Origin: Acholeplasmataceae bacterium
Lineage (GTDB): Bacteria > Bacillota_I > Bacilli_A > Izemoplasmatales > Hujiaoplasmataceae
NCBI GenBank assembly: GCA_012515085.1
Contig: JAAYZB010000143.1
Location: 1-48,057 of the forward strand
Direction: 5' to 3'
Length of the DNA stretch: 48,057 nt
Under the pieces are notes generated by a model, which searched no databases, was not told where the DNA came from, and saw only the letters and a program-made list of their open reading frames with translations. A program made the position numbers and the translations under genes. Of the stretch, positions 16,011 through 35,270 are shown one piece after another (positions within the stretch are counted from its first letter, which is position 1; every line of letters starts with the position of its first letter).

Positions 16011-16087
<77 letters not shown>

Positions 16088-16090
16088 AAG

Positions 16091-16166
16091 TGGTGGAGGT
16101 TGACGGGCTCGAACCGCCGACCCTCTGCTTGTAAGGCAGATGCTCTCCCAGCTGAGCTAAACCTCC
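16091..16166 (-). tRNA. tRNA-Val (anticodon UAC), CCA encoded
   Basis: The reverse complement is GGAGGTTTAGCTCAGCTGGGAGAGCATCTGCCTTACAAGCAGAGGGTCGGCGGTTCGAGCCCGTCAACCTCCACCA. Acceptor GGAGGTT/AACCTCC, anticodon stem TCTGC/GCAGA, loop CT-TAC-AA. It lies 3 nt from tRNA-Thr. Confidence 0.95.
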
Positions 16167-17627: not shown

Positions 17628-19138
17628 TAAAGCGGTGAATCATAGAGACTGTCGATCACAGAGCCGTCCCGATATTCGAGATAACCGATCCGTTTCTTTC
17701 CCGAAGGGATTTCTTTCGGTTTTCCAGCGATGGCATAGGTGAGGTCCAACAACTCGCGGATCGTCATGATTTTCAGTCGCGAGTGCGATAACTTCTCCAG
17801 CAAATCTGTTCTTAACGGATTGATGGCGATCCCTCGTTCTGTGACCAAGATATCCACATCCGACCCCGGAGTGGTGATTGTTCGAACTTTCTCCCGAATG
17901 ATCGGAATCCGGGCCTTGGTCAATGTCGAGGTGATTATCGTGATTTTTGCCCCGTGCGCGGTATCCGCATGTCCACCTGATCCGCCAATGATTTTCCCGA
18001 AAGCATCGGTCGTGACATTCACATTGAAATCCAGATCGATCTCTGTGGCTCCCAGGATCACAAAATCCAGCCTGTCCACCGCAGACTTATTTTCAAAAGG
18101 GTTCCCATACTCCGAAGCGGAAATTCCGATATGATTTTTGTTCTTGTGGTAGGATTCCACCGCCTCCAAGTCGAAACACTGGACATCGTAAAGATGTTCA
18201 AACAAACCTTGATTCAACATATCGACATAATATCCGGTAATTCCACCTGAGGCAAATTTTCCTTTTACCTGATTTTTTAACATGACTTTTTTGACAGCGT
18301 CCGCCACGGCGAGCGACGTGCCTCCGGCTCCCGTCTGCATCGAAAAGCCATTGCGGATGACTCCTAGTTCGGTTAAGAGCGTGGCGGTGTCTTCCGCAAT
18401 TTTGAGTCCGATCGGGTCTCTGGTGATCTTGGTCGTTCCGGCAACGATTCCCGCCGGATCACCAATTGAATCCACCATGACGACACCGTCCACATGCGAA
18501 TGATCGAGTTGATAGGAATCCAGTTTATCGACGAGTGTATCACTGACCAAAATCACTTTCTTGGCATATCGCCAATCGCTACACGCGTATCCGAGTGTTC
18601 CGCAGGCGCTTTTGCCATATGCCCCGGAACCGTTTCCGCTTTTATCTACGACCGGGCAAGCCAAAAATGCCACATCAATGGCAAGCTCGCCACTTTCGAT
18701 CGCCCGAGCTCTCCCCCCATGTGTCTGCATGATCAGTTCTCCCGCCAAATGGCCTTTGGCAATGGTATCCGCAACCGGACCATTCAAATAACTGGTCACG
18801 ATTTGGGTGATATTTTGTCGGATGATCAAATCGCTTAAGCGGTATTCCGGAAAAATCGAACTAGGCGCCAAGGTGAGTCCTTTAATATCGTACTTTGAAA
18901 TCAACTCGCCCACTTGGTTGATCACTTGATCACCGCTTCGCAAATGATGATGAAAGGAGAGTGTCATGCCTGGCTTTATATCCATTGCCAGAAATGCCGC
19001 TTCGAGAGATGGATAAAAAAGGCTTTGATCAACGGGCGATTTTTCTGGTATTAACCGACGTTCTTGATGACGAAAATCAGAACTAGATTGAAATGGTTTC
19101 AAGCCATCAGGAATTTCCCGATTCAGACTATTCTTCAT
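17624..19138 (-). CDS. citF: citrate-lyase-type alpha subunit (acyl-ACP:substrate CoA-transferase); probably citramalate lyase here
   Basis: 504 aa and CitF-like over its full length (NREIP...SFHHHLRSGD...MQTHGGRA...GGHADTA). It sits in cluster order D-E-F. Confidence 0.85.
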   Translation of the reverse strand: MKNSLNREIPDGLKPFQSSSDFRHQERRLIPEKSPVDQSLFYPSLEAAFLAMDIKPGMTLSFHHHLRSGDQVINQVGELISKYDIKGLTLAPSSIFPEYRLSDLIIRQNITQIVTSYLNGPVADTIAKGHLAGELIMQTHGGRARAIESGELAIDVAFLACPVVDKSGNGSGAYGKSACGTLGYACSDWRYAKKVILVSDTLVDKLDSYQLDHSHVDGVVMVDSIGDPAGIVAGTTKITRDPIGLKIAEDTATLLTELGVIRNGFSMQTGAGGTSLAVADAVKKVMLKNQVKGKFASGGITGYYVDMLNQGLFEHLYDVQCFDLEAVESYHKNKNHIGISASEYGNPFENKSAVDRLDFVILGATEIDLDFNVNVTTDAFGKIIGGSGGHADTAHGAKITIITSTLTKARIPIIREKVRTITTPGSDVDILVTERGIAINPLRTDLLEKLSHSRLKIMTIRELLDLTYAIAGKPKEIPSGKKRIGYLEYRDGSVIDSLYDSPLY

Positions 19139-19997
19139 TTTCTGGCACTCCCACTTCGTATCGTTGGGCCTTTTGCATGATCGTCCGAGCGCGTTTGATG
19201 ATTGGCTGATCGATCATTTTCCCATCCAAACTAAAAACACCGAGACCGTTTTTCGAGGCCTTTTTCTCGGCGTCCAAGACGTTTTTTGCCCAGAGGATCT
19301 GATCATTAGAGGGTGAAAACACCGCATGGATCAAGGGAATCTGCCGGGGATGGATGGCGGCTTTGGCCGTCATTCCGAGACTGGATGCCATCAACGCGTC
19401 TTGTGTCAATCCTTCGTCGTCATTGACATCCGCAAACGGTGTATCGATCGCATCGATTCCCAAAGCCCTAGAGACGATGGCGAGTTCCGCCCTTGGGAAC
19501 CACAGTTCTTTTCCCTCGCGCGTGCGTTTGATTTCCATGTCACTACAAAAATCTTCCCCACCGAGCAACAAGCCCGTTACTCCCTTTACAGAAGCGATAT
19601 TTTTCAGTTCCAAAAACGATGATGCAAGCTCGATGATCGGGATGATGTCAAACTGGCGGCCGAGCGATTCTTCCTTTCTTTTGAGCATCTCTGCCAGTGC
19701 TTTTGTCGACTTTTCACTTGCCTTTGGCAACATGATCCCATCAATTTTCAAAGTATCCAGCAATTGAAGATCAAAAGAGTAATCAGCGGTATCCGGAGCG
19801 TTCACTCGGAGAATGACCTTTGAAGGCAGCACCGGATGCCCTAACAAGTAATCTTTGATGAGATTGCGAGCACTTGCTTTTTCGTTGATATGAACCGAAT
19901 CTTCCAAATCAAAAATGACGGAATCCGCCCCAAACACGTCCGCCGTTTGCATCATCGACGGATTGTTTCCTGGGATAAAAAGAGCGCTTCTAATCAT
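19128..19997 (-). CDS. citE: citrate-lyase-type beta subunit (citryl/citramalyl-ACP lyase)
   Basis: 289 aa with HpcH/CitE motifs (RSALFIPGNNPSMM...FDLEDSV...MLPKA...GGEDF...IHPRQI). Confidence 0.85.
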   Translation of the reverse strand: MIRSALFIPGNNPSMMQTADVFGADSVIFDLEDSVHINEKASARNLIKDYLLGHPVLPSKVILRVNAPDTADYSFDLQLLDTLKIDGIMLPKASEKSTKALAEMLKRKEESLGRQFDIIPIIELASSFLELKNIASVKGVTGLLLGGEDFCSDMEIKRTREGKELWFPRAELAIVSRALGIDAIDTPFADVNDDEGLTQDALMASSLGMTAKAAIHPRQIPLIHAVFSPSNDQILWAKNVLDAEKKASKNGLGVFSLDGKMIDQPIIKRARTIMQKAQRYEVGVPENEE

Positions 19998-20247
19998 CGC
20001 TCTTCATCCGTTTCAATGCCGTGATCAACCGCGCTCGAATCGTATAGTCCAGCGCTCCTTTGTCAACGCAAACCACGCGAATGTTCTGGATGTGTTCTTC
20101 TTTGAGCGTCTCCCGGATCACTTTTTCAATTTGATCATGATACATTAGGTCCACAATACTCTGGATCTCGATTTCCAACATATCGCTCTCAAAGACACTG
20201 ATCAGCGCATCGTTGGATTCTTTGGTTCCGGCAACCCCTGTTTTCAT
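19990..20247 (-). CDS. citD: citrate-lyase-type gamma subunit (acyl carrier protein)
   Basis: 85 aa. MKTGVAGTKESNDALISV matches the CitD N-terminus, including the prosthetic-group Ser region. The RBS is GGAGGGG. Confidence 0.8.
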   Translation of the reverse strand: MKTGVAGTKESNDALISVFESDMLEIEIQSIVDLMYHDQIEKVIRETLKEEHIQNIRVVCVDKGALDYTIRARLITALKRMKSDD

Positions 20248-20259
20248 TGCCAGCCCCTC

Positions 20260-21501
20260 CTATCGTTTTCGAATTCGTTCCAATACACGGTTCATCTCAT
20301 TTTTAACAATCATATAGCCTTCGTCAAAGCCCATGCCCGGCTTCGCCAGGCATTGGCTGGCGTTGCAGGCGATGGCAATATTCGTCGTGACTTCCGCAGA
20401 AATATTGGTTTCGTTACATGTGCCACCACAATACGAACCGATCATTGCTTTGTTGCAGTAAAGGATCGCCTCGATGGTATTATTGACTCCACCCAAATCG
20501 GGGGTTTTGATCTGCAACATGTGTCCGGCTTTTTGATCCGCAAAATAAATGATGTCTTCCAAGGTGTTGCACCATTCATCCGCGACGATCTCCAAGTTTG
20601 ATCCCAACCGATCCAAGCGTTCGCGAAGATTCTTAAGCGCCATCATCGTCGCTTCTCGCGCGCCGCCGTCGATCGGTCCTTCGATCCGAAGACCAAATGG
20701 GCGAGCAGTCTTTTCGAGATCCAATAGATACGCCACTATTTTGTCTAAATCATTCGCGAAAATGATTCCAATCGTCCCGTAAACATCGATATGCAAGATC
20801 GGGTGATACTGGTCGTGATTGCGATGCGTTAGAATCCGGTCCCGAAGCCAAGCGACATATGTTTTTAAAATTTCACCTTGACGACCCAGTTTTTTGTCAA
20901 TGTTGTTTATGAGCGCATGCGGCAGGACGTCTGCTTCCTTTAAAATCATCTTGTCCACATTGGTATAACGGTCATCACCACTTTGGGAAAAGACGGGAAT
21001 CGGGTGATAGTCTTTTTCCGGAATATGATATTCCTCGCGAACAATTTCCGCCATCGTTTTGCCTTTGCTCACGGCAGTCGCCCATAAAAGCGCTTGAGTT
21101 ATGCCATAGCGAATTGCCGTGTGAAGTCTTTTGCCACGGATCATCAAGTGATCATATTTTTCGGCGAGTTGCCGAAAATTCTGAATGTTTTCTTTTAAAA
21201 GCATTGGGACAAGGTCTTCGCGAATCATCCCGATGTAATCATCTGCCAAAAAGAGCGGGTCTCTCCCTCCGGTTCCCGAATATTGGACCGCGGCACAGTC
21301 GCCATAACCGATCAGTCCGTTTTCCAGTTCGATTTGCAGCGAAATCGCTTCACCTTGTTGGCGAACTTTGGTGAATCCAGGGATGAGAGGTTCTCCCAAA
21401 TAACAAAAACCGTCGTTTTGAGCGCCTTCTTTGATGGCTTTTTGGTCATCAAAGAAAAATCCGGTGTAAGACTTGGATACATAGATATGCTTGATTTTCA
21501 T
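20260..21501 (-). CDS. mal: methylaspartate ammonia-lyase
   Basis: 413 aa of the enolase superfamily. MKIKHIYVSKSYTGFFFDDQKAIK... matches the canonical beta-methylaspartase N-terminus. The gene lies directly after glmE. Confidence 0.9.
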   Translation of the reverse strand: MKIKHIYVSKSYTGFFFDDQKAIKEGAQNDGFCYLGEPLIPGFTKVRQQGEAISLQIELENGLIGYGDCAAVQYSGTGGRDPLFLADDYIGMIREDLVPMLLKENIQNFRQLAEKYDHLMIRGKRLHTAIRYGITQALLWATAVSKGKTMAEIVREEYHIPEKDYHPIPVFSQSGDDRYTNVDKMILKEADVLPHALINNIDKKLGRQGEILKTYVAWLRDRILTHRNHDQYHPILHIDVYGTIGIIFANDLDKIVAYLLDLEKTARPFGLRIEGPIDGGAREATMMALKNLRERLDRLGSNLEIVADEWCNTLEDIIYFADQKAGHMLQIKTPDLGGVNNTIEAILYCNKAMIGSYCGGTCNETNISAEVTTNIAIACNASQCLAKPGMGFDEGYMIVKNEMNRVLERIRKR

Positions 21502-21509
21502 GAGGTCTC

Positions 21510-22970
21510 CTATCGGTTTTTCGGCCGTCCGACTAATTTTCCGGTGCTGACCGAATACACATCGTCAATGGTGAGCTGAAAAGATAGCGTGCGGTTTTCA
21601 AAAGCGGCACGTTCGCTGATTTTGGAACGATGGAACGCTTTGATGTCGTCGGTAAAGCCTAAATTGCCAAATTCCAAAATCCGAATATTGCCATCGTTGT
21701 CCCGTGCAGGAAGGATTTTGCCAAGATTATAGCGACTGGGTGCAAAAGGAATATCGAGAAGTCCTTGTTCAAAAGCTTTGACGATACCTTGTGCCAAATC
21801 CCCTTTGCCGGCTTCCACGACACAGTGGATCAAACTGTCGACTTCTCTTTCGATTTGATACCGTTCCGCGAGCAACAAGTTCGTGCTTGGCAACGTTTGT
21901 CCCTTGACCAGATTGACCACGAATTTAGAGGCTTTGACCCCGAATCCGTTGGCCTCTTTCGTGGGTATTCCAATCGATTCATGGGGACTTTTCGTAATCA
22001 TCTTGGTCGCTTGAGATAGGGTTGCGACCGTGGCGCTTAACGATATCAATCCCATGGCTTCGGATTCGTCTTCCGGAAAGCCACCCATCCACTGATGAAA
22101 GACCGTGGAGACATCACAGTCTTTATAACCATACTTCGCCAAATAAAATTCTGTTTGATTCTGAAGCGCTTGGATGGCGGCGATGTCTTGGATGATGTTT
22201 CCACCCATACCGTATCCGACCGTAATGCTTTTGACTCCTTGTTCCGCCGCCAACAATGCTTCCAATATGCCAACGGCATTGGAAATCGACGGTGGAACCA
22301 ACGTACCGGTCAACGGACCAAACGGCTCACGATTGATGGTGATCCCTTGTTCCTGATAAAATCCAACCAATCGGTCGCAGTATTGCCAGTTGCGCAAACT
22401 CACTTCGAGCGGAATCGATTTCGCATAAGGAATATTATAAGATATCCCGCCACCCTCATTGGATGTCCAGCCAGAGGCATGGATGATTTCCGCCAAGAGC
22501 CGGGCATCGGGCGTTCCGTGCCGGGCTTGAAGCGGAACGTTCACGCTTTCTAAGACCGTTTTACAGTTTTTGACTCCGTGATTCACAACCGGAAAACCAT
22601 TTAACAGTGCCCGTCCGATCTGTTCGCTTTCACGCATGCCTTTTTCGGCTTCCCGATAACGGTTCTGCCTGGTATACGAATCAACCGTGGTCGGCAAAAA
22701 GTCTGCGCCCGCGTTCTCTAAATATTGCATCAGTTTGATATGTTCGGACAAGACCGGCACACCCGCGCGTGGCTGAACCATGGTCACACTTGCTTGTTTT
22801 GCCTTCAGCAACTTCTTGGCGAATATCTTATGATCCGGAATTTGTTTCAAATAAGGAATCGACACCGAAAAATCCAGTTCGGGATCCCATCCGGTCGACC
22901 ACTCTTGTCTGACTTTTTCGCGTTCAGCCAAAAAGTCTGCTTCCGTCATTTTTTTGTTTGTGAGCTCCAT
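21510..22970 (-). CDS. glmE: glutamate mutase epsilon (catalytic) subunit
   Basis: 486 aa, the canonical size. It sits in the conserved S-L-E-mal order and has a GlmE/MutE-like TIM barrel (PRAGVP...[12 protein letters not shown]...). Confidence 0.9.
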
Positions 22971-22986
22971 CGCATAATCCTTCTTC

Positions 22987-24369
22987 TCAAACAGAAATCA
23001 AGCGTTTTTTCATGATTTTGAGTGCCAAAAGCGGTTCTTGTTGGGACAAGAGGCCCATGGCGGATAAAATATAGGTCTGATCCAATAAATACTCAGGATT
23101 CCTGGGGGCCAAATCGGTTGGCGATTGATGTTTGGCGCTCAGGTGTTCCAAAATTGATCGAGGGTCTTTTGAACGGATGATCACTCCGCCGGAACCGATA
23201 CAATGGGTAACGTCGGAAAGATCTTTCCCTGTTTGGTGATAGAACGTCCCCATCGGGGTAAACACTTCTTCAATCTTGCCAACGTGACGAGCCATTGCCC
23301 GGGTCGCACAAAGTCTTGCCAAAAGCAGATCGACGCGTTCGGCTTCGACAGAATCGGGAATATATTCCACGTGATTCGCTCGAAATGACGCTTCCGCTTC
23401 CAGATCCAACTGATTGACTTGATTGAAGGCCATGAGTTCCTCCCGGGAAAAGGGCTTGATGATTCCCAAGGCCGAATATCGCATTCCCAAGTCGCCTTCG
23501 ACGGTGCGCTTGGCATAGGGTTCTTCCAACCCCCGCAAAATGACATCGCTTCGTTTGGCCGCAAAAGAGAGCGAATACATATCCGTCGTCGCACCACCAA
23601 TATCGACCAGCACCAAATCCCCCAGTCCCGGTTCATCCAGATATCCCTTGGAGAGGAGTTCGGCGGCTTGAAGCACTGCTTCCGGTGTTGGTAACATCAC
23701 ACGGTCAATTTCACTTTCGATCTTTTTGATTCCTTTGGCTTCGATGATCTTTTTTAAAAAGATGTCACGAATCATTTCCCTTGCGCTTTTGACATTCAAG
23801 ACATTGACTTTGGGCATCACGTTTTCCGCAAAGTAACCGTCACAATCGTGGCGGGTAAAAATCTCTTTGACGTCATCCATCGCCGATTTGTTTCCCGCAT
23901 AGATGATAGGGATCTTGATTCCGGCCGCTCCCAATTTTTCCGCATTGAACAGCACACATTCGGCGTTCCCGCCATCGGTTCCTCCGGCAAGCAGGAGAAT
24001 ATCGATGGCTTTTTCCCGAATCAATTCTATTTCTTGGTTCGATAGATGATGCGAAAAAACCAGATCCACTTTGGCACCCGCGCCGAGACAGGCTCGTTTC
24101 GCCGCTTCTGCCGTCAGTTCTTCCACCAAACCGACCGCAGCCATTTTCAAGCCCCCAGCCGCAGAAGAGCAGGCAATGATTTGATCAAATGAAACCGGTT
24201 TTTCGAACGATGCTTGTAAACTCTGGAGTGCCGCTTCATACCCGATGGCGATGTCTGTCCGGACGGTGCTCACATGAGAACTCGTCCCAATCACATCCCC
24301 AATAAGGGTATCAACCGCAGTTAATTTGGTATAAGTCGAGCCAAAATCAACGAGCAAAATCGCACTCAT
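22987..24369 (-). CDS. glmL: glutamate mutase component L (GlmL/MutL, ASKHA-type chaperone/reactivase)
   Basis: ORF 22987..24444. I prefer the ATG at 24369 ([20 protein letters not shown]), with RBS GGGAGA, 1 nt after the glmS stop. That gives 460 aa, the canonical GlmL size. A second ASKHA motif is [12 protein letters not shown]. Confidence 0.85.
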
Positions 24370-24370
24370 A

Positions 24371-24775
24371 TTAATCTCCCATATCCTGTTTGATATCGGA
24401 TAACGCTTTATCGATCGTGGTTCCGGGAGGATATACCCGGTCAAATCCCATCGCTAAAAATCGTTGGCAGACTTCTTCGAAATCTTGTTTTCCGACAACG
24501 ATGTTTCCCCCCACATATAATTTGATATCGCCGATCCCGGCTTCAATGCATTTGTCGCGCATACCGCGACAATCGATTTCGCCGTGGCCATATAAAGAAG
24601 AGACCAAGATGATTCGGGCGTTCGCTTCAATGGCGGCGTTGATGAAGTCTTCTTGAGAAGACAGCACACCGATATTGACAACGTTATACCCGGCATTTTC
24701 CAATGTGTATTCAATGATTTTGTTGCCAACGGCGTGTACATCGGCACCGATGACGCCTATGACGATCGATTTCAC
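24371..24775 (-). CDS. glmS: glutamate mutase sigma (B12-binding) subunit
   Basis: ORF 24371..24820 uses a TTG start. I prefer the GTG at 24775, which has RBS AAAGGAG 6 nt upstream. It encodes (M)[19 protein letters not shown] with the DxHxxG motif, about 134 aa. Confidence 0.85.
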
Positions 24776-24819
24776 AGCGATCTCCTTTATTCCTTGACAT
24801 TCATGAATGATCAATCCCA

Positions 24820-24848
24820 ATTATAACATGCTTGGAAGGTTAATCCAA
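24820..24848 (-). promoter_or_regulatory. putative internal sigma-A promoter upstream of glmS
   Basis: The minus strand reads TTGGAT, a 17-nt spacer, then TG-t-TATAAT (extended -10). It lies about 45 nt upstream of the GTG start. Confidence 0.5.
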
Positions 24849-24862
24849 TTCCCATTTGGGGG

Positions 24863-25414
24863 TTACTCCGTTTTTTTCGTTTGCGTTACCGACTGAACTT
24901 TGATATAGACAAACAGCAAATCGCTCAAACGGTTTAAGTAAGCCAACCCCGTTACTAAATCATCTCGTTTTTTGTCTATGATAAAAGAAACCAATTCCCG
25001 TTCCGCCCGGCGTGTCGTCGCCCGAGCGACATCCAGATAGGCTCCGCCTTTGGTCGTGTCGCTTCCGGGAAGCGAAAAGATCGGCTCCAGCGGGTGATCC
25101 TTCAAGAGAAGTTCCATCGTGTTTTCCAAACAATCCACATCAGATATCGTCACTTTATTTAACGATTTCATTTTTGGATCTTCGGGATTCGTTGCGATTT
25201 GCGATGATAGTTTTCCAAGTGCGATCTGGATCGTCCTTAATTCGGGGATCGCCACATAATGGGTCGCTATCCCGATCAGCGAATTTGCCTCGTCTATCGC
25301 GCCCAAAGCAGCGAATAATTGATCGGCCTTCGAGAGAACGTCACCTGAGTAATTTCGAGAAGTGCCGTTATCCCCGGTTTTGGTTGCGATTTGTCTGGCT
25401 TTTTCAATTTTCAT
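24863..25414 (-). CDS. PduO-type ATP:cob(I)alamin adenosyltransferase
   Basis: The ORF has a GTG at 25420; I prefer the ATG at 25414. MKIEKARQIATKTGDNGTSRNYSGDVLSKADQLFAALGAIDEANSLIG matches the PduO/MMAB N-terminal signature (TxxGDxGxT). Confidence 0.85.
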   Translation of the reverse strand: MKIEKARQIATKTGDNGTSRNYSGDVLSKADQLFAALGAIDEANSLIGIATHYVAIPELRTIQIALGKLSSQIATNPEDPKMKSLNKVTISDVDCLENTMELLLKDHPLEPIFSLPGSDTTKGGAYLDVARATTRRAERELVSFIIDKKRDDLVTGLAYLNRLSDLLFVYIKVQSVTQTKKTE

Positions 25415-25432
25415 CCCCACTCATCCCTTTCT

Positions 25433-26170
25433 TTAAAACATTTGCTTCTTTCGTCGAATCAATTCCAGTACGGCATAAGCCGCAACATCTTCAGCGTATT
25501 TTTTTGGTCCGAATCCGGCATCATAGCCGAGTTCCTTGGCTAATTCATGAGTGATCCGGGCCCCTCCTGCGATCAAAACAACATCCTTTCGCATTTGTTC
25601 GGTCTCCAACAGTTCAACAAGATCTACCAAGTTTTTCAAGTGGATGTCTTTTTGCGTCACTGTTTGGCTCACAAGCAACACGTCCGCCTTGAGCAATTTG
25701 GCCTGCCGAACGAATTCCTCGTTGGCCACTTGGCTTCCTAGATTAACCGCTTTAATGTGTTTATAGCGCTCCAATCCGTAGTGCCCGGCAAATCCTTTCA
25801 TGTTCATGATGGCATCGATCCCCACCGTGTGGGCATCGGTTCCGGTGGAAGCCCCAACGAACACCAATTCCCGATCCAGCTCGGTTTCAATCAGTTGTTC
25901 GATTTCTTCTCGGGTCATGGTGGGTGTTTCAAACGTTTCGACATGGATATCATTGAGGTCGATACTGACTCCTACGGATCCATAGACGATATAAAAACTA
26001 AAATGATCGCCGAGTTTTTCCTGATGTACAACGTTGGGATCGATCAATCCCATTTTTTTGGCGAGTTGTCTGGCCGCTTCTAAGCCGATGGCATCGGCTG
26101 CAATCGGCAGCGTAAAACTGATTTGAACTTTTCCGTCTTGAAGCGTGTCGCCGTAGGGTTTGATGTTCAT
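25433..26170 (-). CDS. kamE: lysine 5,6-aminomutase beta subunit (B12-binding)
   Basis: 245 aa. MNIKPYGDTLQDGKVQISFTLP... is followed by a Rossmann B12 domain with GTDAHTVG (DxHxxG). The start forms an ATGA overlap with kamD. Confidence 0.85.
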   Translation of the reverse strand: MNIKPYGDTLQDGKVQISFTLPIAADAIGLEAARQLAKKMGLIDPNVVHQEKLGDHFSFYIVYGSVGVSIDLNDIHVETFETPTMTREEIEQLIETELDRELVFVGASTGTDAHTVGIDAIMNMKGFAGHYGLERYKHIKAVNLGSQVANEEFVRQAKLLKADVLLVSQTVTQKDIHLKNLVDLVELLETEQMRKDVVLIAGGARITHELAKELGYDAGFGPKKYAEDVAAYAVLELIRRKKQMF

Positions 26171-27714
26171 CGGAAAAACTCCTCCATTCTCAGAGCGATT
26201 GGATTCACATAATCCTTATCCTTGACATAGACGCCTTCCAAGCCTTTACCGCCTTGGAAGGGTCGTTTGACGCCGGCAAAAACACCGTTTTCCAAGGCGT
26301 TGAACAACCCCGTCTTTTCCACGTCGCCTAATAATAGTTTCGCTTTTTGGAGCACTTCGCGCGCCCGGGTGTGGATCACACCGCCCTCGCGGTAATCGAT
26401 GGCTTCGCGAAAGGATTTCGCTGTTTTTTGAATTGTTTTTGCGCTATCGATTGCCAAGAACCGATCGGATAAAAACGGGGTATGGATCGCTTCCGTCATC
26501 ATCCCCAAGAGATGGATGGATTGATCCGTCATCACTGTGGCTAGGTTAAACAAGGCGTTTTGCATGGTTGCGCGGAATATATTGCCACTGATATGCTTGG
26601 TTGGCGGCATGTATTTGAGCGGTGCATCGGGAAAGATTTCCCGCGCCATTTCAGCTTGAGCGATTTCAAAAAGAAAGCTGTTTTCAATTTCCGGATCAAT
26701 CTCAAACGCATGTCCCAATCCCATTAAGGAAGCGGACAAGTGGGCTTTTTTTGCGAAGGCTTCGTTGATGAACTGCGAAGCGAGAACGGTATGGGCTTCT
26801 TCAACGGCATCGCTTGTCGTCAAATAATTGTCTTCACCGGTATTGATCAAGATCCCGGCATAGGCGTTGATGAGCCGAGAGAAGTTTTGATCGATAAACG
26901 TGCGTTGCATATTAATGTCGCGGAAGATGATACCATACAGACTGTCATTTAACAAGATATCCAGTCGCTCAAGCGCGGCCATCGCGGCTATTTCCGGCAT
27001 GCACAACCCCGAGGCATAATTGACGAGACGGATATAACGACCGACGTCTTTCGACACTTCGTCTAAAGCTTGTCGCATCAGCCGGAAGTTGGCTTGCGTC
27101 GCATATGTTCCTCCAAAACCTTCCGTTGTGATGCCGTATGGAACATAGTCAAGCAGGGACTGCCCCGTCGAGCGGATCACCGCGATGATATCCGCCCCTG
27201 CTCTTGCGGCTGCTTGGGCTTGTATCACATCTTCATGAATGTTTCCGGTTGCCACGATCACATATATTTGCGTCTTCGCTGTTCCATAGGTATTGATCCA
27301 ATGATTGCGAAGTTCTTTTTGTTCTTGAATCTTTTTCAACCCTTGATCAATCCAAGGTTTTAGGATGGCAAGCGTCTCTTCGACACTTGCGGGATCCTTG
27401 GCAAGCGTTGCTTTGCCGGCTTGATAAGCCACCAAAAAATCCGCCAGGTTCCGTTGTGTGTTTTTTAGTGATGCCGCCAAATAGCGACTGATGCCTTCAC
27501 CACAATTTCTCTGTTGAAGACAATCATCCACCAACCGGTTGACAAGGGGAACTTGGTAGCGATCGACGCCGTCTACTCCCAATAGCCTCAAGATGCTTCG
27601 CTCTACCGAAACGGTTGTGTGATTGTCAATAAAGCGGACGATTTTTTCGGCAATGGCATTGGCATGAATTCGACAAGATTCGATTGTTTTTTGATCTAAA
27701 TTCAGTTTATTCAT
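26167..27714 (-). CDS. kamD: lysine 5,6-aminomutase alpha subunit
   Basis: ORF 26167..27732. I prefer the ATG at 27714 ([10 protein letters not shown]...; RBS AAGGTGG), giving about 515 aa, the canonical KamD size. It sits in a kamA...kamD-kamE context. Confidence 0.85.
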   Translation of the reverse strand: MNKLNLDQKTIESCRIHANAIAEKIVRFIDNHTTVSVERSILRLLGVDGVDRYQVPLVNRLVDDCLQQRNCGEGISRYLAASLKNTQRNLADFLVAYQAGKATLAKDPASVEETLAILKPWIDQGLKKIQEQKELRNHWINTYGTAKTQIYVIVATGNIHEDVIQAQAAARAGADIIAVIRSTGQSLLDYVPYGITTEGFGGTYATQANFRLMRQALDEVSKDVGRYIRLVNYASGLCMPEIAAMAALERLDILLNDSLYGIIFRDINMQRTFIDQNFSRLINAYAGILINTGEDNYLTTSDAVEEAHTVLASQFINEAFAKKAHLSASLMGLGHAFEIDPEIENSFLFEIAQAEMAREIFPDAPLKYMPPTKHISGNIFRATMQNALFNLATVMTDQSIHLLGMMTEAIHTPFLSDRFLAIDSAKTIQKTAKSFREAIDYREGGVIHTRAREVLQKAKLLLGDVEKTGLFNALENGVFAGVKRPFQGGKGLEGVYVKDKDYVNPIALRMEEFFR

Positions 27715-28705
27715 CTTTACCACCTTCATCATCGCAAACGTTAAATACCGGAATGGGCAAGGCTTTCGTCAGCCTTTCAGAAAATAGTTTTTTGGGAAAC
27801 TCATATCCCTTGGGAGAGGTTGGATTGATACAGACCGCTAACAAGCGGATCGGATGGATCACCTTGATGCTTTTTTCCCACTGATCCATTCGTCTGTTCA
27901 ATGCCTCATCACAATGCATATGGATCGGAGAAGGTATGATCAAAGTGATCGAGAGGTTTTGTTTGAGATAGGCGTGCAAGAATCGACTCCCGAGTGTCTT
28001 CGGGCAATAGAGCGCCCGCGTGTGTCCATCGATTCTTTCCAGAATACGCTGGGGATCTACCAGTGTGGAACGCTCGGGAAACCTCTGGATCGAGCCGTCT
28101 TTCATTATGGCGACAAGCGTGTTTTCCCCCGCCAAAAACCGAAGATCATCTCCGGCATAAGGAAGCGATAGTTGACGAACTTTAAAGGAAGCATCCTCGA
28201 CGACCTTCTCGATGTCACGAGAATAATCGGCGCCGATGACCAATATTGTCGCATCTGCCAATATCGCCGGCGTTTGTCTAGAAAATGCCCCATCGATCAA
28301 TACTCTTTTCGTGGGATACTTCTTCAAGACCCGAATGAGTTCGGACATTTCCTCTATCGTCGAAGGCCCGGCGACCAAACAATTACCGGGTGCAATGATC
28401 CGGATAATGACGATGGGTCCAAGTGCCGTCACGATTGACGTTCTCAGAAGGATTTCATAACCAGCTTCTGTGGTTTTGAGACACTCCTCTGCGGTTGCAA
28501 CCAACGATCCGGCCGTGACAAAAATCCTTGGCTTCGGAAGAAAGGTCACCTGGTCGATCGCCTCTCCGTCCAACCCGATGGAGGTGATGGCGGTTTCTGA
28601 TTGTGAAAGATTCGTCAAAAGAAAATTCAATACCGTCGTCTTGCCGGCATTTTTCACATTGCCGATGATAGCGACGACCTTCAGGTCTTTTACCTGATCG
28701 ATCAA
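27707..28705 (-). CDS. P-loop NTPase, candidate aminomutase reactivase ATPase (KamC-like; tentative)
   Basis: 332 aa with Walker [11 protein letters not shown] at residues 15-22. The start is a TTG overlapping the kamA TGA (TTGA), and the 3' end overlaps kamD by 8 nt. Its position between kamA and kamD matches the accessory genes of lysine-fermentation operons as I recall them. Confidence 0.5.
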
Positions 28706-29964
28706 TGATTTAATGTGCGTATCCTCCGCGCTAAATGACTGGGTTCGATCGAGGTCCCCTCTCCGCGTAACAAAGCACTGACCCCTTCGCTTTTTTCCTT
28801 CTTGCAGTCTTCGCAGTGGCAGTTGCTCTCATAAGCCGGTGGTTCGCTATAAGTGGAAATGACTCCCTCATAATTTCGGAGCACGACTTTTCCGGGAGCC
28901 ATTGATATCAGATAATTCGGCATAACCGGAATTTTCCCGCCGCCTCCCGGCGCGTCGACAACGAATGTCGGCACACAATAACCGCTCACATGACCTCGAA
29001 GTCCTTCAATGATTTCGATACCTTTGGATACCGGTGTCCGGAAGTGTTCGATCCCCATCGATAGATCACATTGATATATGTAATAAGGTCGCACGCGGAT
29101 CTGGGCTAGTTTTGTCACCAATCGCCGCATGACATGAACGCAATCATTCACGCCTCGCAAGAGGACGGTTTGATTGCCTAAAGGAATACCCGCATCGGCG
29201 AGCCTGTCAATTGCGGCTTTGCTTTCTGCCGTGATCTCATCTTCGTGATTAAAATGAGTGTTCAACCAGATCGGGTGATATTTTTTAAGCATATCGACGA
29301 GTTCCGGGGTGATTCGTTGTGGCATCACGACGGGTGTTCTTGTGCCAATGCGAATAATTTCCACATGGTCGATCGCCCGTAATCGGGCAATGATACTCTC
29401 GAGCATATGGTCTTCCATCAATAGGGCATCTCCACCCGATAACAACACATCGCGTACTTTAGGTGTATTTTTGATATATTCAATGGCTTTATTGATTCTT
29501 TCTTCGGGTGCCGGCATATCGCGTTGACCGGCATATCGTCTTCTTGTACAGTGCCGGCAGTACATGCTGCACATGTCGGTAATCAAGAAAAGCACTCGAT
29601 CCGGGTAACGGTGGGTAAGTCCCGGGACGGGCGAGTCGACATCCTCATGCAGCGGATCCAGCATATCGTATTTCCCGACGCTGAGTTCCTCGATTCCAGG
29701 AACGGCTTGTTTGCGGATCGGGCAATCCGGATTCTCGGGATCGATCAACGTCAGAAAATATGGAGTGATCGCCATGCGGAATTTTCCCAAGACTTTATCA
29801 ATATTAGCTGCTTCGGTTGGGGTGATGTGCAAATATTTTTTTAAATCGGCTACTTGCGTGATTCGATTGCGGACCTGCCAATGCCAATTAGCCCAATCGG
29901 CTTCCGAAACGTGTCCAAAATAAGTGGCTTTTCGCTCTAAATAACGATCATTGGTCTTAATCAT
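28702..29964 (-). CDS. kamA: L-lysine 2,3-aminomutase (radical SAM)
   Basis: 420 aa with the [12 protein letters not shown] (CxxxCxxC) cluster motif. The N-terminus ...[13 protein letters not shown] is canonical for KamA, and LLSGGDALL is present. Confidence 0.92.
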
Positions 29965-31007
29965 AGACTTCCTTCCTTTCCATATCGCTGCTTAAAGATC
30001 TCAAAGAGAACGCGGGACTCGCGAAACAAGTTCAGGGTGAGTTCGGCGTGTCCGCGAGTATATCCGTTCCCAATCATCATCGTGATATCGCTCGCGACAC
30101 CTTCCGCTCCAAGAGCCGCCTTGGCAAACGAGGTCGCCATGCTGAAAAAGTAGACGGTGCCTTGTTGTTTCGTCGGCAAGATCGCTGTCATTTCCGTATT
30201 GGGAACGTTGACGACATTGATCGTCACATCGACAAGGTGGCCGTTATTGGCCTTTAACACCTTTTCATAAACCGCCAGCGGTTTCGTGGCATCTTCCACG
30301 ATGATTTCATCGCAGACTGCAAGTCGTTCAAGATCTTTCTTTTGAGACAAATCATTGATCACTCCGAATACTTTTCCGTTTTTCCCAGCTGATTGTCGGG
30401 CTTGATAAGCACACAGCAACCCACTTTTTCCTGAGGAGCCCAAAATCAGAACACTATCATTCACTGCTACTAGCTTTTGCACCTGAGCGGGCGCACCGGC
30501 CACGTCCAAGGCTGCCAAAACCAGATCCGCTGGCAAATCAGCGGGAATCTTCGCATAGATTCCTGTTTCAAATAAAATCGCCTGCCCAAGAATATCCACT
30601 TGATCTCTCGCGGGATGGATTTGAAGAATCCGTTCGATCTTGAGCGGTGTCAACGATAAGGAAACCAAAGAAGCGATGTCATCGCCTACTCGAAGATCCT
30701 TTTGGATTTCTTTGCCGATTTCCTTCACTTTTCCAAGGAGCATTCCCCCACTGCCGGTAACAGGATTTTGCATTTTCCCCCGGGTTTCGACAATCGTCAA
30801 TATCATCGCTTCCATCCGCTTGAGATCGTTATCGCAAGCTTGTTGGATTTGATGAAAGGATGCTGAATCGATGTTCAAGGTGGTCACATCGATCAGGATT
30901 TCGTTTGCTTGGCAAATCATCGTATTATCCAGTATATCCGCCGCTTGAGGCAGCACCCCCTGAGGAGAGATAACGCGATTTGCCCCGTATTTACTGACTT
31001 TTTCCAT
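29961..31007 (-). CDS. kdd: 3,5-diaminohexanoate dehydrogenase
   Basis: 348 aa with a Rossmann segment [11 protein letters not shown]. Its position between kce and kamA matches characterised lysine-fermentation clusters. Confidence 0.75.
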
Positions 31008-31830
31008 GGTTATACCCCAGTTTCAACAGTTGTCTTGCCTCATCGGGCGTAGCGATGTCCCGACCAACGCGGGATGCCATCATTCTCACTTTTCGAACTA
31101 ATTCGGCATTGGATTGCGCAAGCACTCCTTTTTCCAAGTAAAGATTGTCTTCCAAGCCAACACGAACATGGCCGCCGGAAAGGATGGCGCATTCCGCTAA
31201 AGAAAATTCATATCGACCGATTCCGGCGACACTGTAGGTCGCATCTTCCGGAATGCTTTCTCGTAAAAAATGAAAATCGCGGGTCTCACCCGTCATTCCC
31301 CCAACGACTCCTAAGACAAAACTAAAGTGCAGTGGTGCTCGGATCAATCCTTTTCGATAACATCTTAAAGCGAGATCGACGTGTCCTTTGTCAAAACATT
31401 CCAATTCATAAGCGATGTGGCGCTCATGCATTTTGGCCGCAAAATGAATGATGTCATTTTCGGTGTTCACAAAAATATCATCGCCGCCAAAATTCAAGGT
31501 GCCGCAATCCAATGTCGCCATTTCCGGATTCAACACAAGTGGAGCAAGTCGTTCTTCTCTAGTCATGCCAATCGCGCCGCCCGTTGAGACTTGGATGATG
31601 ACGGCTTGCGACACTTGGCGAATTGCCGAAATGATTTCTTGATACCGTTTGGCATCTTGGGTCGGCGTTCCATCATCATAGCGAGCATGAACATGCAAAA
31701 TACTCGCGCCCTCCTTTATGGCGGCAGCGGCTTCTTGTTGATATTCCTGGAGGGTATAAGGAACCGCGGGGTTTTGAGCTTTGGTCACCTCAGCCCCACT
31801 CAGGGCGCAGGTTATGATCAATTTGATCAT
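30991..31830 (-). CDS. kce: 3-keto-5-aminohexanoate cleavage enzyme (BKACE/DUF849)
   Basis: The ORF has a TTG at 31863. I prefer the ATG at 31830 ([17 protein letters not shown]...), which forms an ATGA overlap with kal. It has the BKACE TIM-barrel signature ([11 protein letters not shown]..., GLEDNLY). Confidence 0.85.
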
Positions 31831-32210
31831 GATTGCCGTTGGTTTTCCTTCAAGACGCAACAAGTCCCCACGGCGGTAGCCACCCGGATTTTAGTTGTTA
31901 ATAAATCCGCAGCTGATGCAGAAATATCCGGCCGAGCTTGGATATACTTGTCACAAGTGAATTCCATTTTGCGCGAAGTGTTGCCGACTTTGACGATTTC
32001 TCCCGTGACTTCCAAGAAGTCGCCGGCATAGACCGGAGCCAGGAATTCGACTGATTCATAAGCCCGAAACAATCCTTCATCCCCATCTTGCCGAATCAAC
32101 AACTCCGTGGCGACATCGCCAAAAAGCGCCAAAATACGAGCGCCATCCACTAGATTGCCGCCATAATGAGCATCACTATTAGCCATTCTGATTTTTAATG
32201 TTGCTTTCAT
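31827..32210 (-). CDS. kal: 3-aminobutyryl-CoA ammonia-lyase (hot-dog fold)
   Basis: 127 aa, beginning [37 protein letters not shown]. Size and context fit Kal. Confidence 0.75.
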
Positions 32211-32854
32211 AATTCTATTCCTTTCATCGGAATCACCTGATCGATAATGAGCGGCGCTTCCGTTGCTTTCAATACCTCTTCAATCGAATAATTTGGGTGT
32301 ACTTCTTTCAAATGCAACCCATCTTTTTCAACACTCATAACGGCCATTTCGGTGACGATCATATCCACTTGGTTTGCCGCCGTCAGCGGCAAACGACAAC
32401 GGGTCAAAATCTTGGGCTGTCCTTTGTTGGTATGGGTCATCGCTATGATCACTTTTTTGGCCCCTTCGACCAAATCCATTGCGCCTCCCATTCCGGGAAC
32501 TCGTTTTCCCGGAACGATCCAAGACGCCACGTTCCCTTCTATGTCAACTTCCAAAGCACCAAGGACAGTCACGCTGATATGCCCTCCTCGAATCATGGAA
32601 AACGACATCAATGAATCAATGAAGGCGCCGCCTTTCAATACCGACGCCTTATTGCCGCCGGCATTGACGATATACGTGTTTTCATCAATATAAGGTCCCA
32701 TTCCCACCACCCCGTTTTCCGAATGGAAGACAATGGTTTTGCCTGGCTCGATGTAATCGGCAACCAATGTCGGGATCCCAATTCCTAAGTTGACAAGATC
32801 GCCATCATTCAACTCCATGGCAATGCGCTTGGCAATGATTTGTTTATCGTCCAT
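32207..32854 (-). CDS. atoA: 3-oxoacid/acetoacetate CoA-transferase subunit B
   Basis: 215 aa with [16 protein letters not shown] and SENG (catalytic Glu region HSENGVVG). Confidence 0.9.
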
Positions 32855-33501
32855 TATTGTTCCTCCGCTAAAATATAATCGACCAATGGATGCGGGGTAA
32901 TGACGTGTTCTGGATCGATTTCATCGACTTCTTGCACCGCCTCGGCGACAACGCAGTCCGCCGCCAAAGCGATGATCGGATTGAAATTACGCATGGTCTG
33001 AAGATAGGCTAAATTGCCGTATTTATCGGCAACCGCCCCGCCAATCAATGCCAAATCCGCTTTTAATGGTGTTTCAAGCAAGTAAGGAATATCCTCCACG
33101 ATGATGACGCGTTTCTTTTCTTCCACGATGGTATTGAGTCCGGTTTTTGTCAAGATACCACCCAGTCCGGCCCCGCCGGCATGGATTCTTTCCGCTAAAG
33201 TGCCTTGTGGCGATAGTTCCACTTCCAGTTCGTTTGATTGCATCAAAACTCCCACGGTCGGGTTGGTGCCAATGTGGGAAGCGATCAACCGTTTCACTTG
33301 CCTCGTCTCAATCAATTTGCCGACTCCCCGGTCGGGAAAACCACCGTCGTTGCAGATGATGGTCAAATCTTTTATTCCACTTTCAACAACGAGATCGATT
33401 AACCTCTCCGGGCTGCCGTTGGCGAGAAAGCCGCCGACCATGATCGTCATTTTATCCTGTAACAATTGAATGAATTCGGTTTTGTCAATACGGCCTTTCA
33501 T
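32854..33501 (-). CDS. atoD: 3-oxoacid/acetoacetate CoA-transferase subunit A
   Basis: 215 aa with [16 protein letters not shown]...ICNDGG...[16 protein letters not shown]. Confidence 0.9.
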
Positions 33502-33929
33502 TCAGATACCCTCGCTTTCGGCGGCATGATCTCGGCTTCGCCGACCATGACGACTTCTTGGTGCTGATTCACCGATTCACAAGAAAAAATGACACGATTT
33601 TTTTCCGGAATCAGCAATGTGACACAAACCTTGGCGGTGATCGTATCCCCCAAGAAAACCGGTTTGATGAATTTCAGGCTTTGTTTGGTATAAATACTGC
33701 CGAGACCAGGGAGCGTACAACCGAAAATCGTGCTATACATGGCCCCAACCAGCATTCCATGGACAATCGGGCGTTGGAAAGGCGTTGATGCTGCATATTC
33801 CGGATCGATATGAGCCGGATTTGCATCGCCAGTCAGTTGAGCATACTCTTTGACCATGGCCTCTGTGAATGTTTTGACGAAAGTTGCTTCGTCACCAATC
33901 TTCATTTCTTGTAACGTCAGACTTTTCAA
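33498..33929 (-). CDS. MaoC-like (R)-specific enoyl-CoA hydratase/dehydratase
   Basis: The ORF track extends this to 34160, but that extension is the riboswitch leader. I prefer the TTG at 33929 with RBS AAGGAGGG 6 nt upstream (...KSLTLQEMKIGDEATFVKTFT...DANPAHIDPEYA...IVHGML). An ATG at 33905 is an alternative. Confidence 0.75.
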   Translation of the reverse strand: MKSLTLQEMKIGDEATFVKTFTEAMVKEYAQLTGDANPAHIDPEYAASTPFQRPIVHGMLVGAMYSTIFGCTLPGLGSIYTKQSLKFIKPVFLGDTITAKVCVTLLIPEKNRVIFSCESVNQHQEVVMVGEAEIMPPKARVSE

Positions 33930-33947
33930 AATGACCCTCCTTGTGGC

Positions 33948-33983
33948 AATAAAAAAGGCTGTTATATTGACCAATATAACAGC
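33948..33983 (-). terminator. intrinsic terminator forming the riboswitch expression platform
   Basis: The minus strand reads GCTGTTATAT-tggtca-ATATAACAGC followed by CTTTTTTATT. This is a 10-bp perfect stem plus a U-tract. Confidence 0.85.
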
Positions 33984-34137
33984 TCTCCATCTGGGATGGC
34001 AGTAAGTAAACGCTCGTTCACTTACCAAGGATGAACCGAAGAACCGATTCCACCTTTCGGCGACATACCTATTCTTTTGCCGGATTCGGAGTTCTTTCCG
34101 TTCGCACCGGGAAAATACCGATATGACGCGCCTCTGT
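33979..34137 (-). ncRNA. lysine riboswitch (L-box) aptamer
   Basis: The minus strand carries the conserved L-box blocks in the correct order: ACAG-AGAGGCGCG ... GTCGCCGAAAGG ... CTTGG-(hairpin TAAGTGAA/TTTACTTA)-CTG-CCATC-cca-GATGG-AGAGCTGT. It closely parallels the B. subtilis lysC and T. maritima aptamers as I remember them. Confidence 0.85.
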
Positions 34138-34158
34138 GTGTATTCAATTACGCACTTC

Positions 34159-34187
34159 ATTATACGAAATTATGTAAGCGTTGTCAA
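34159..34187 (-). promoter_or_regulatory. consensus sigma-A promoter driving the riboswitch and lysine-fermentation operon
   Basis: The minus strand reads TTGACA, a 17-nt spacer, then TATAAT (perfect consensus). The -35 element lies inside the last codons of mutY. Confidence 0.7.
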
Positions 34188-35270
34188 TATTTCCTTTTCC
34201 GATTTCGCTTCCATAGAATCGGAATCATCCATCGCCTCGAGCAGAATTGAAAAAGCTTTTGGCAAACTCATGGTTTGTTGGAGTGTTTCCCTGCTCACCC
34301 AGGTGAAACCCGTTTCAGGCGCATGAAAAGAAGCGATCACTTTCATCCCGATGAGTTTCCAGGTGATGTGCGAAAAATGATGAAATAAGCTTGGAAGCTT
34401 TCTGATCGACGTTGGTGTTATTTTCCACGCGGCCAATTGCATCTTGGCCGCTTCGAAGGTCAGTTCACCTTCCCGGTTCGGAAATTCCCACATGCCTCCC
34501 AATAGCCCTTCGGCATCTCGTTTCCTTAGAGCTAACTTCCCGTCATTGAGTATCACAAAGACGGTGCGTGTCTCAGCTTTTTTTAAGGCTTTTGCTTTTC
34601 TTTTCGGAATATCTTTTTCAATCCCTTTTTGATGCGCCATACACCCCGCCATAAAAGGGCAACAAGCGCAGGCGGGGGCGGTATTGGCGGTACAGATCGT
34701 CGCCCCCAGATCCATAAGCGCCTGGTTGAAATCACCGGGTCGATCTTTTGGCAACAATTGTTTGACCCATGTGGATACTTGTCGGCGTAAGACAGGATCG
34801 TTGATTGGTCTTTCGATTCCAAGGATCCGGGAGAATATTCGATAGAGATTGCCATCAATGGCTTCGAAAGGTGCTTGAAAGGCAATCGACAAAATCGCTC
34901 CGGCGCTGTAGTCGCCGATGCCCGGCAACCTTATCAACGTGTCATAGTCTTTTGGAAAGATTCCGCCCTGCTCTTTCATGATAATCTGCGCTGCACTTTT
35001 CAAGTTTCGTGCCCGGGAATAATATCCAAGCCCTTCCCATAATTTTAAAAGCATTTCATCGGAAGTCTCTGCTAAGTCTTTGATTGTTGGAAGCACACTG
35101 ATGAAGCGTTGATAATAAGGGATCATTGTCGCTACCTGGGTTTGTTGCAACATGACCACCGCAACAAAAATCCGGTAGGGATCATGCTCCTTTTGCCAGG
35201 GCAAAACTCGACCGGACTTTGAATACCATTCAAAAAGCGCGCAGTTAAAACTCTCTTTGTCAAGCGCCAT
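34170..35270 (-). CDS. mutY: A/G-specific adenine DNA glycosylase
   Basis: 366 aa with an HhH-GPD domain (LPGIGDYSAGAI), a 4Fe-4S loop CTANTAPACACCPFMAGC, and a C-terminal Nudix-like domain. Confidence 0.9.
   Translation of the reverse strand: MALDKESFNCALFEWYSKSGRVLPWQKEHDPYRIFVAVVMLQQTQVATMIPYYQRFISVLPTIKDLAETSDEMLLKLWEGLGYYSRARNLKSAAQIIMKEQGGIFPKDYDTLIRLPGIGDYSAGAILSIAFQAPFEAIDGNLYRIFSRILGIERPINDPVLRRQVSTWVKQLLPKDRPGDFNQALMDLGATICTANTAPACACCPFMAGCMAHQKGIEKDIPKRKAKALKKAETRTVFVILNDGKLALRKRDAEGLLGGMWEFPNREGELTFEAAKMQLAAWKITPTSIRKLPSLFHHFSHITWKLIGMKVIASFHAPETGFTWVSRETLQQTMSLPKAFSILLEAMDDSDSMEAKSEKEILTTLT

Follow-up and report, generated by a model that had tools for sequence, protein, structure and literature searches.

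The stretch of DNA analysed here (the window) comprises 48,057 nucleotides of contig JAAYZB010000143.1 from an Acholeplasmataceae bacterium, and its minus strand carries, between a MutY-like gene and a run of genes for the fermentation of lysine, a leader that we propose to be a lysine-activated transcriptional riboswitch (Table 1). The leader was read on the minus strand from 34400 to 33400. Downstream of it, the NCBIfam models for KAL, KCE, KDD, lysine 2,3-aminomutase, KamB and the alpha and beta subunits of lysine 5,6-aminomutase all scored above their cut-offs, and, judged from these gene assignments, the run is a complete lysine-to-acetate/butyrate fermentation set. An earlier note on this DNA, made from the letters of the sequence, had listed the MaoC-like gene, atoDA, kal, kce, kdd, kamA, kamD and kamE, all of which were confirmed, and had missed the kamB-like gene; the gene for a PduO-type adenosyltransferase (24863..25420) is also part of the run and is a further addition to that list. 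How far the transcription unit extends along these genes is something that we infer.

The earlier note had also set aside a 220-aa open reading frame (33498..34160) as being mostly leader and not protein, a reading that did not hold. Only the first 77 codons of this frame (33930..34160, 35%), which opens at an ATG overlapping the -10 box, overlie the promoter and the leader, and the MaoC-like gene proper occupies the last 143. Of six near-identical public contigs, five annotate this gene as 143 aa, and in homologous leaders the start falls at the equivalent codon behind GGAGG.

Table 1. Features of the locus, in the order in which the minus strand is read (positions are those of the window).
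Feature	Position	Strand	Details
MutY-like gene upstream of the leader	34170..35270	minus	HhH-GPD and NUDIX_4 domains
Sigma-70-type promoter	34187..34159	minus	-35 TTGACA 34187..34182, 17-nt spacer, -10 TATAAT 34164..34159
Lysine riboswitch aptamer, RF00168	34144..33972	minus	five-way junction, helices P1-P5
P1 5' strand ACAG	34137..34134	minus	pairs with CUGU
Loop L2 AGAAC	34095..34091	minus	complementary to L3, kissing-loop tertiary contact
Loop L3 GUUCU	34044..34040	minus	complementary to L2
Intrinsic terminator	33983..33951	minus	10-bp stem, loop UGGUCA, C, U6
P1 3' strand CUGU	33982..33979	minus	shared segment, pairs 2 to 5 of the terminator 5' arm
Ribosome-binding site GGAGGG	33940..33935	minus	first gene of the operon
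TTG start codon	33929..33927	minus	first gene (MaoC-like)
MaoC-like (R)-enoyl-CoA hydratase-type gene, 143 aa	33498..33929	minus	first operon gene
atoD (CoA-transferase subunit type)	32854..33501	minus
atoA (CoA-transferase subunit type)	32207..32854	minus
kal, 3-aminobutyryl-CoA ammonia lyase	31827..32210	minus	NCBIfam equivalog
kce, 3-keto-5-aminohexanoate cleavage enzyme	30991..31863	minus	NCBIfam equivalog
kdd, 3,5-diaminohexanoate dehydrogenase	29961..31007	minus	NCBIfam equivalog
kamA, lysine 2,3-aminomutase	28702..29964	minus	NCBIfam equivalog
kamB-like reactivase subunit	27707..28705	minus	NCBIfam KamB
kamD, lysine 5,6-aminomutase alpha	26167..27732	minus	NCBIfam equivalog
kamE, lysine 5,6-aminomutase beta	25433..26170	minus	NCBIfam equivalog
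PduO-type cobalamin adenosyltransferase	24863..25420	minus
glmS-like	24371..24820	minus
glmL/MutL	22987..24444	minus
glmE	21510..22970	minus
Methylaspartate ammonia-lyase	20260..21501	minus
citE-like	19128..19997	minus
citF	17624..19138	minus
citX-citG fusion	16326..17627	minus

The promoter in front of the leader matches the consensus at 12 of 12 positions and is the sole perfect match that the consensus scan returned in the window, against 0.01 expected by chance; its -35 box falls within the end of the mutY-like gene, whose stop codon occupies 34172..34170. Transcription would start near 34152. The aptamer that follows was recovered over its full length by the RF00168 covariance model (model positions 1-182), with 70.3 bits against a gathering score of 30 and an E value of 1.8e-16, so that both the TTGACA-17-TATAAT promoter and the lysine aptamer that had been called from the letters were borne out. 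Folded alone, the aptamer adopts helices P1-P5 at -55.7 kcal/mol. The strongly conserved junction blocks of RF00168 (AGAGGCGC, GCCGAA, CUG and GGAGAGCU) are all present and align to upper-case consensus positions.

Comparison with homologues points to the same structure. In an alignment of the window aptamer with seven homologues from upstream of kal in other genomes (n=8), the RNAalifold consensus gives the same P1-P5 fold, with compensatory changes in 35 of 50 pairs; a further count over the eight aptamers gave 39 of 55. With the L2-L3 kissing loop added as a pseudoknot, paired cells amount to 91.6%, compared with 37-47% when the partners are slid, and none of 500 shuffles reached the observed value. 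The L2-L3 helix itself covaries among the homologues (GGAC/GUCC, GAAC/GUUC, GGGG/CCCC), with 92.5% of cells paired and three of its five pairs changed on both sides. Judged by these alignments, the aptamer is intact and of canonical lysine architecture, and it would be expected to bind lysine. In addition, we observed that the P2 internal loop reads GGUA, against the loop-E AGUA of the RF00168 consensus, in all eight aligned kal-type aptamers, at a place where the Rfam alignment has a 2-nt gap; this loop (34091..34130 in the window, and its counterparts in the homologues) may represent a form of the P2 motif peculiar to this clade.

The identity of the ligand deserves consideration at this point, since the same fold and the same ON platform could in principle serve a compound related to the pathway, such as beta-lysine or another diamino acid, rather than L-lysine. 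The altered P2 loop and the occurrence of several lysine isomers as intermediates of the pathway would fit a shifted specificity, and ligand preference cannot be read from sequence alone. Against this stand the complete set of conserved junction blocks, a model score of over twice the gathering score, the simplicity of substrate induction by lysine as a regulatory logic, and the published interpretation, which in the passages concerned (PMC5584792, PMC2258182) is lysine. We therefore regard a ligand other than lysine as very improbable.

The feature that sets the proposed logic is the way in which the aptamer meets the terminator. The terminator stem is formed by GCUGUUAUAU (33983..33974) and AUAUAACAGC (33967..33958), all ten pairs of which were verified, and is followed by a C and by U6 at 33956..33951. 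P1 consists of four pairs only, since the two further pairs that Rfam models at its outer end are mismatches here (C.U and A.A), and inspection by eye found no longer P1 through bulges or a shifted register. All four nucleotides of the P1 3' strand fall within the 5' arm of the terminator, and since P1 and the terminator share these nucleotides, the two cannot coexist. Between aptamer and terminator there is no further element, and in particular no separate antiterminator. The anatomy is thus as the earlier note had described it: CUGU at 33982..33979 pairs in both structures, the two exclude each other, nothing else intervenes, and only A-U pairs are left to the terminator once P1 is held, six of them by the present count.

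Folding calculations give the energetic side of this overlap. The full terminator hairpin has a free energy (dG) of about -12.1 to -12.6 kcal/mol, whereas the stem that remains when the P1 3' strand is withheld retains -0.7 to -0.9 kcal/mol (-0.7 at 37 C, and nothing at 55 C). The minimum free energy (MFE) structure of the whole leader, at -69.4 kcal/mol, contains P2-P5 and the terminator, with P1 absent; forcing P1 raises the energy to -58.4 kcal/mol, a cost of about 11. When the 3' end was extended step by step, P1 was part of the MFE structure at 3' ends 33975, 33968 and 33962 and was replaced by the terminator at 33957 and 33951, that is, P1 is favoured only before the 3' arm of the terminator is present. 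In the folding model, the ligand-free default outcome is termination.

The conventional OFF arrangement, in which lysine would promote termination or block translation, is what most lysine riboswitches use (PMC2258182, PMC3082890), and it has to be weighed here. It would need a separate antiterminator whose formation is prevented by P1; the window has none, and it is the terminator itself that consumes the P1 3' strand. Repression by lysine of an operon that degrades lysine would make no physiological sense either. Translational control was considered as a candidate and rejected, as the ribosome-binding site GGAGGG is unpaired in both predicted states, which speaks equally against an OFF switch acting on translation. 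An OFF switch of either kind is hardly credible at this locus, the least probable of the readings considered.

Our preferred reading, which we hold at a probability of roughly 85%, is that the leader controls the lysine-fermentation operon as a transcriptional lysine riboswitch of the ON type, through lysine-activated read-through. The sequence of events would be as follows: (i) the strong constitutive promoter at 34187..34159 would start the leader, the first ~175 nt of which would fold into the canonical lysine aptamer; (ii) P1 (ACAG/CUGU, 4 bp) would close once its 3' strand had been transcribed; (iii) some 20 nt further on, the 3' arm of the terminator would emerge and compete for the same CUGU; (iv) with lysine absent, the weak P1 would be displaced, and the 10-bp hairpin with its U6 would form and stop transcription before the MaoC-like gene; and (v) with lysine occupying the junction, P1 would be locked together with the junction strand beside it, leaving six A-U pairs for the hairpin, and RNA polymerase would read on into the MaoC-like gene, atoDA, kal, kce, kdd, kamA, kamB and kamDE. 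Since the operon degrades lysine, its induction by lysine is physiologically sensible. The read-through model had been put forward in the earlier note and is supported in silico by the anatomy, by the energetics and by the overlap seen in 27 of 28 leaders, to which we now turn.

Eighty kal loci, one genome per species, were retrieved with an alignment of Kal proteins. Seven of the first 12 had, according to Rfam, a lysine riboswitch upstream of kal, and a covariance model built from those kal-upstream aptamers (R1), run on the 80 loci, yielded 27 matches, all on the kal strand and all upstream of kal; Rfam confirmed 18 of the 19 R1 matches that were re-tested. The loci that bear a riboswitch come from Bacilli, Izemoplasmatales/Acholeplasmataceae and Clostridia-type genomes (Bacillota and Mycoplasmatota), and among the 80 there was no R1 match in kal loci of Myxococcota, Thermotogota or Bacteroidota, one contig labelled Bacteroidales excepted. 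The aptamer of locus L019 (1277..1455) was missed by the Rfam gathering scan with default fast filters and scored 70.4 bits when scanned alone. The match in L055 (9749..9877) extends over only 129 nt, is not reported by Rfam and is to be treated with caution; it may represent a shortened variant of the aptamer.

Together with the window, these 27 related leaders make up a comparison set of 28, outside which we kept the leader of Caldanaerobacter (L087). In the window and in 26 of its 27 relatives, the 5' arm of a terminator (hairpin plus U-tract) contains the P1 3' strand. Twenty-six leaders were scored automatically; L006, in which anchor C is bulged, was judged by eye and has three of the four P1 nucleotides in the terminator stem. 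Across the 26 leaders, the mean dG of the terminator goes from -16.2 to -2.2 kcal/mol when the junction and the P1 3' strand are withheld. The same 26 leaders hold 21 different distal stem sequences, and swapping 3' halves between leaders gave a mean dG of -7.8 kcal/mol compared with the cognate -16.2 kcal/mol; since the stems have diverged in sequence and swapping weakens the hairpin, it appears to have been kept as a structure and not as a sequence.

The shared segment shows a corresponding pattern. P1 has 4 bp in 16 of the 28 leaders and ranges from 3 to 11 bp. At P1 position 3, one shared base faces both a P1 5' base and a terminator 3' base. Written in the order P1 5' base, shared base, terminator 3' base, the triplet there reads C,G,C or C,G,U for 16 leaders and U,A,U for 7 others, and no A-C combination was found at this position among the leaders compared. 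The covariation of these triplets suggests that the shared nucleotide has been kept complementary to both of its partners. Seventeen of the 27 related loci (L001, L002, L003, L004, L005, L008, L015, L016, L018, L019, L022, L038, L044, L047, L051, L062 and L077) resemble the window in having a perfect 12/12 promoter of the form TTGACA-N16-18-TATAAT directly 5' of the aptamer. The combination of a full-consensus promoter with a terminator that is off by default looks like a conserved design in which regulation is left wholly to the RNA.

The lone exception to the overlap is L013, from Alkalithermobacter paradoxus (9735..10000), which combines a P1 of 11 bp with a separate terminator; between the two stands an intermediate hairpin that draws on the P1 3' strand. 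In this leader the strand UUUUCAUUGC is able to pair either with GUAAUGAAAA, beside P1, or with the terminator 5' arm GCACUGAAAA, which suggests a design of three hairpins, one that may likewise yield ON logic.

A lysine-activated switch nevertheless has to be set against several lines of reasoning: (i) in the nearest-neighbour model the terminator state lies ~9 kcal/mol below the P1 state, and a two-state equilibrium tips over only if the P1 state is credited with about -9 to -10 kcal/mol, a bonus that is probably more than lysine binding at physiological concentrations supplies; (ii) P1 has only 4 pairs, and only about 20 nt separate the completion of P1 from that of the terminator; (iii) the split between G and A at P1 position 3 separates Bacilli/Mollicutes from the Clostridia group, and the covariation at this position may reflect few independent events; (iv) no OFF-type lysine leaders occurred in the 1.08 Mb of fetched loci, and the overlap counts cover leaders of kal operons only; and (v) the position of the transcription start site is inferred. 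As the bonus is probably too large for binding to provide, the switch must rely on tertiary contacts outside the model and on kinetic trapping, and the decision would be under kinetic control. We take the equilibrium thermodynamics as support for the default state only, and not for switching.

The first two of these points would also fit a rather different account, in which the hairpin is a constitutive attenuator or leaky terminator that additionally ends read-through from mutY, the 4-bp P1 is too weak to compete even when lysine is bound, and read-through depends on something other than the aptamer, such as a protein antiterminator, temperature or nucleoside triphosphate (NTP) levels. The terminator scan found no terminator between mutY and the leader, which is in keeping with such a role. 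On the other hand, the aptamer is conserved with extensive compensatory change, and the overlap has been kept in all but one of the 28 leaders despite a complete turnover of stem sequences, which is hard to explain without functional competition between the two structures. A P1 of 4 bp is, moreover, the commonest state in the class, which argues that it has been selected and has not decayed. There is accordingly little to commend a ligand-independent attenuator, to which we assign only a slight chance, and the lysine-activated switch remains the reading that we prefer.

The genes beyond the lysine operon raise the matter of how far its control might reach. We observed that those at 16326..24820 (minus strand), directly after the adenosyltransferase gene, correspond to the methylaspartate route of glutamate fermentation, and a scan of the minus strand between kamE/adenosyltransferase and glmS detected no consensus terminator. 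The lys-ATR-glmSLE gene order is kept in L002, L005, L008 and L018. From this arrangement it is possible that the glutamate-fermentation genes are co-transcribed with the riboswitch-controlled operon. A wider proposal is that the leader belongs to a large and uniform lysine-ON class of Bacillota and Mycoplasmatota, marked by a perfect promoter, a minimal 4-bp P1 and direct overlap, which would be biochemically untested as far as the searchable literature goes, and that in this clade the switch may gate, beyond lysine fermentation, a co-directional run of ~18 kb extending into glutamate mutase, methylaspartase and citramalate-lyase-like genes. Taken as a whole, this proposal is tentative, and we think it considerably less probable than its negation; if it were true, lysine would be the signal for a broader programme of amino-acid fermentation.

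Further observations concern the surroundings and the relatives of the locus. Downstream of the fermentation genes, at 16014..16166 on the minus strand, are two adjacent tRNA genes (76.4 and 68.4 bits). Near-identical copies of the locus occur on several metagenome contigs, including contig JAQUZS010000003.1 of GCA_028691195.1. The nearest Kal outside the window's own cluster is 81% identical in a search of a protein collection, and the best kal locus among species-representative genomes only 78%, so that the organism has no close relative among those representative genomes.

These results leave known riboswitch mechanisms unchanged; their interest comes from how broad and uniform the class proves to be, and from its apparent lack of biochemical validation in the searchable literature. 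The window provides a clean example for the small set of natural riboswitch classes in which one aptamer family serves both OFF and ON logic, and the 28-leader set indicates that an ON leader in front of a lysine-fermentation operon is the rule and no oddity of two or three genomes. Several design rules can be read from it: (i) a short P1; (ii) a terminator whose GC pairs fall exactly within the shared segment; and (iii) a consensus promoter, with all control given over to the RNA. Lysine-ON parts of this kind, taken from nature, could stand in for laboratory-evolved lysine-ON switches in metabolic engineering, and they would be well suited to studies of the very short kinetic race in which a large aptamer with a five-way junction prevails over a terminator.

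Activating LYS elements before lysine-catabolism operons (kamA/kal-kce) were reportedly predicted by Rodionov et al. in 2003 (NAR 31:6748), as the earlier note had stated. That statement is essentially right by passages in two later papers: Barrick and Breaker 2007 (PMC2258182), citing Rodionov 2003, speak there of lysine riboswitches 'with ON genetic logic' that 'bury pieces of terminator stems', and the relevant passage of Mukherjee et al. 2017 (PMC5584792) presents lysine riboswitches before kal/kce as positive regulators in C. sticklandii, F. nucleatum, T. tengcongensis and T. wiegelii. For such operons the ON design was thus already predicted in 2003, and the window element is a well-supported further example. 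In the searchable literature, the coverage of which is incomplete, we found no biochemical test of a natural lysine ON switch, and the lysine-ON matches that were followed up lead back to switches engineered by Zhou and Zeng; other papers retrieved were unrelated.

With the published activating LYS elements (T. tengcongensis, F. nucleatum, C. sticklandii) the window has the aptamer family, the controlled pathway and the platform logic in common; unlike those examples, its host is an uncultured metagenome-assembled genome, from the contig family of GCA_028691195.1. The closest view of such an element is offered by Caldanaerobacter subterraneus (T. tengcongensis group), where a 10-bp P1 (GCAUAAAUAG/CUAUUUAUGC) at L087 4088..4300 falls completely within the 5' arm of a long terminator, with U6 after it. 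In both leaders the P1 3' strand is part of the terminator 5' arm and an antiterminator is lacking, whereas P1 has 4 bp in the window and 10 bp in Caldanaerobacter, and the distal terminator stem consists only of A-U pairs in the window alone. The two also differ in the first regulated gene. In the window it is a MaoC-like hydratase gene with the enzymes directly after it; in Caldanaerobacter (L087 4088..5820) the riboswitch precedes a gene for a sigma-54 enhancer-binding activator, followed by kal-kce-atoDA-kdd-kamA, so that lysine control there would be relayed via a protein activator and would not act directly on the enzymes.

The lysC riboswitch of B. subtilis, an OFF switch, is defined architecturally by its five-way junction and its L2-L3 contact (PMC3082890); it resembles the window in both of these, in its intrinsic terminator and in having the stability of P1 as the control point. 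In lysC, however, P1 acts as an anti-antiterminator, and a separate antiterminator (with P6) competes with the downstream terminator, such that lysine leads to termination. The window is missing the antiterminator element, and its proposed logic is inverted. A closer parallel in logic is the pbuE (ydhL) adenine riboswitch of B. subtilis, the archetypal transcriptional ON switch, which PMC2258182 also mentions. There, as proposed for the window, ligand-stabilised aptamer helices sequester the terminator 5' arm, termination is the default, and the decision is co-transcriptional; the aptamer (a purine three-way junction) and its ligand are unrelated, and the overlap reaches into P3 in pbuE, compared with P1 in the window and, in many relatives, P1 plus the J5/1 junction strand. 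Finally, lysine-ON riboswitches have reportedly been selected in the laboratory from OFF switches by Zhou and Zeng (2015). In those engineered switches lysine turns expression on via a lysine aptamer, as proposed for the window, but they are products of laboratory selection, whereas the window carries what appears to be a natural and conserved design based on transcription termination.

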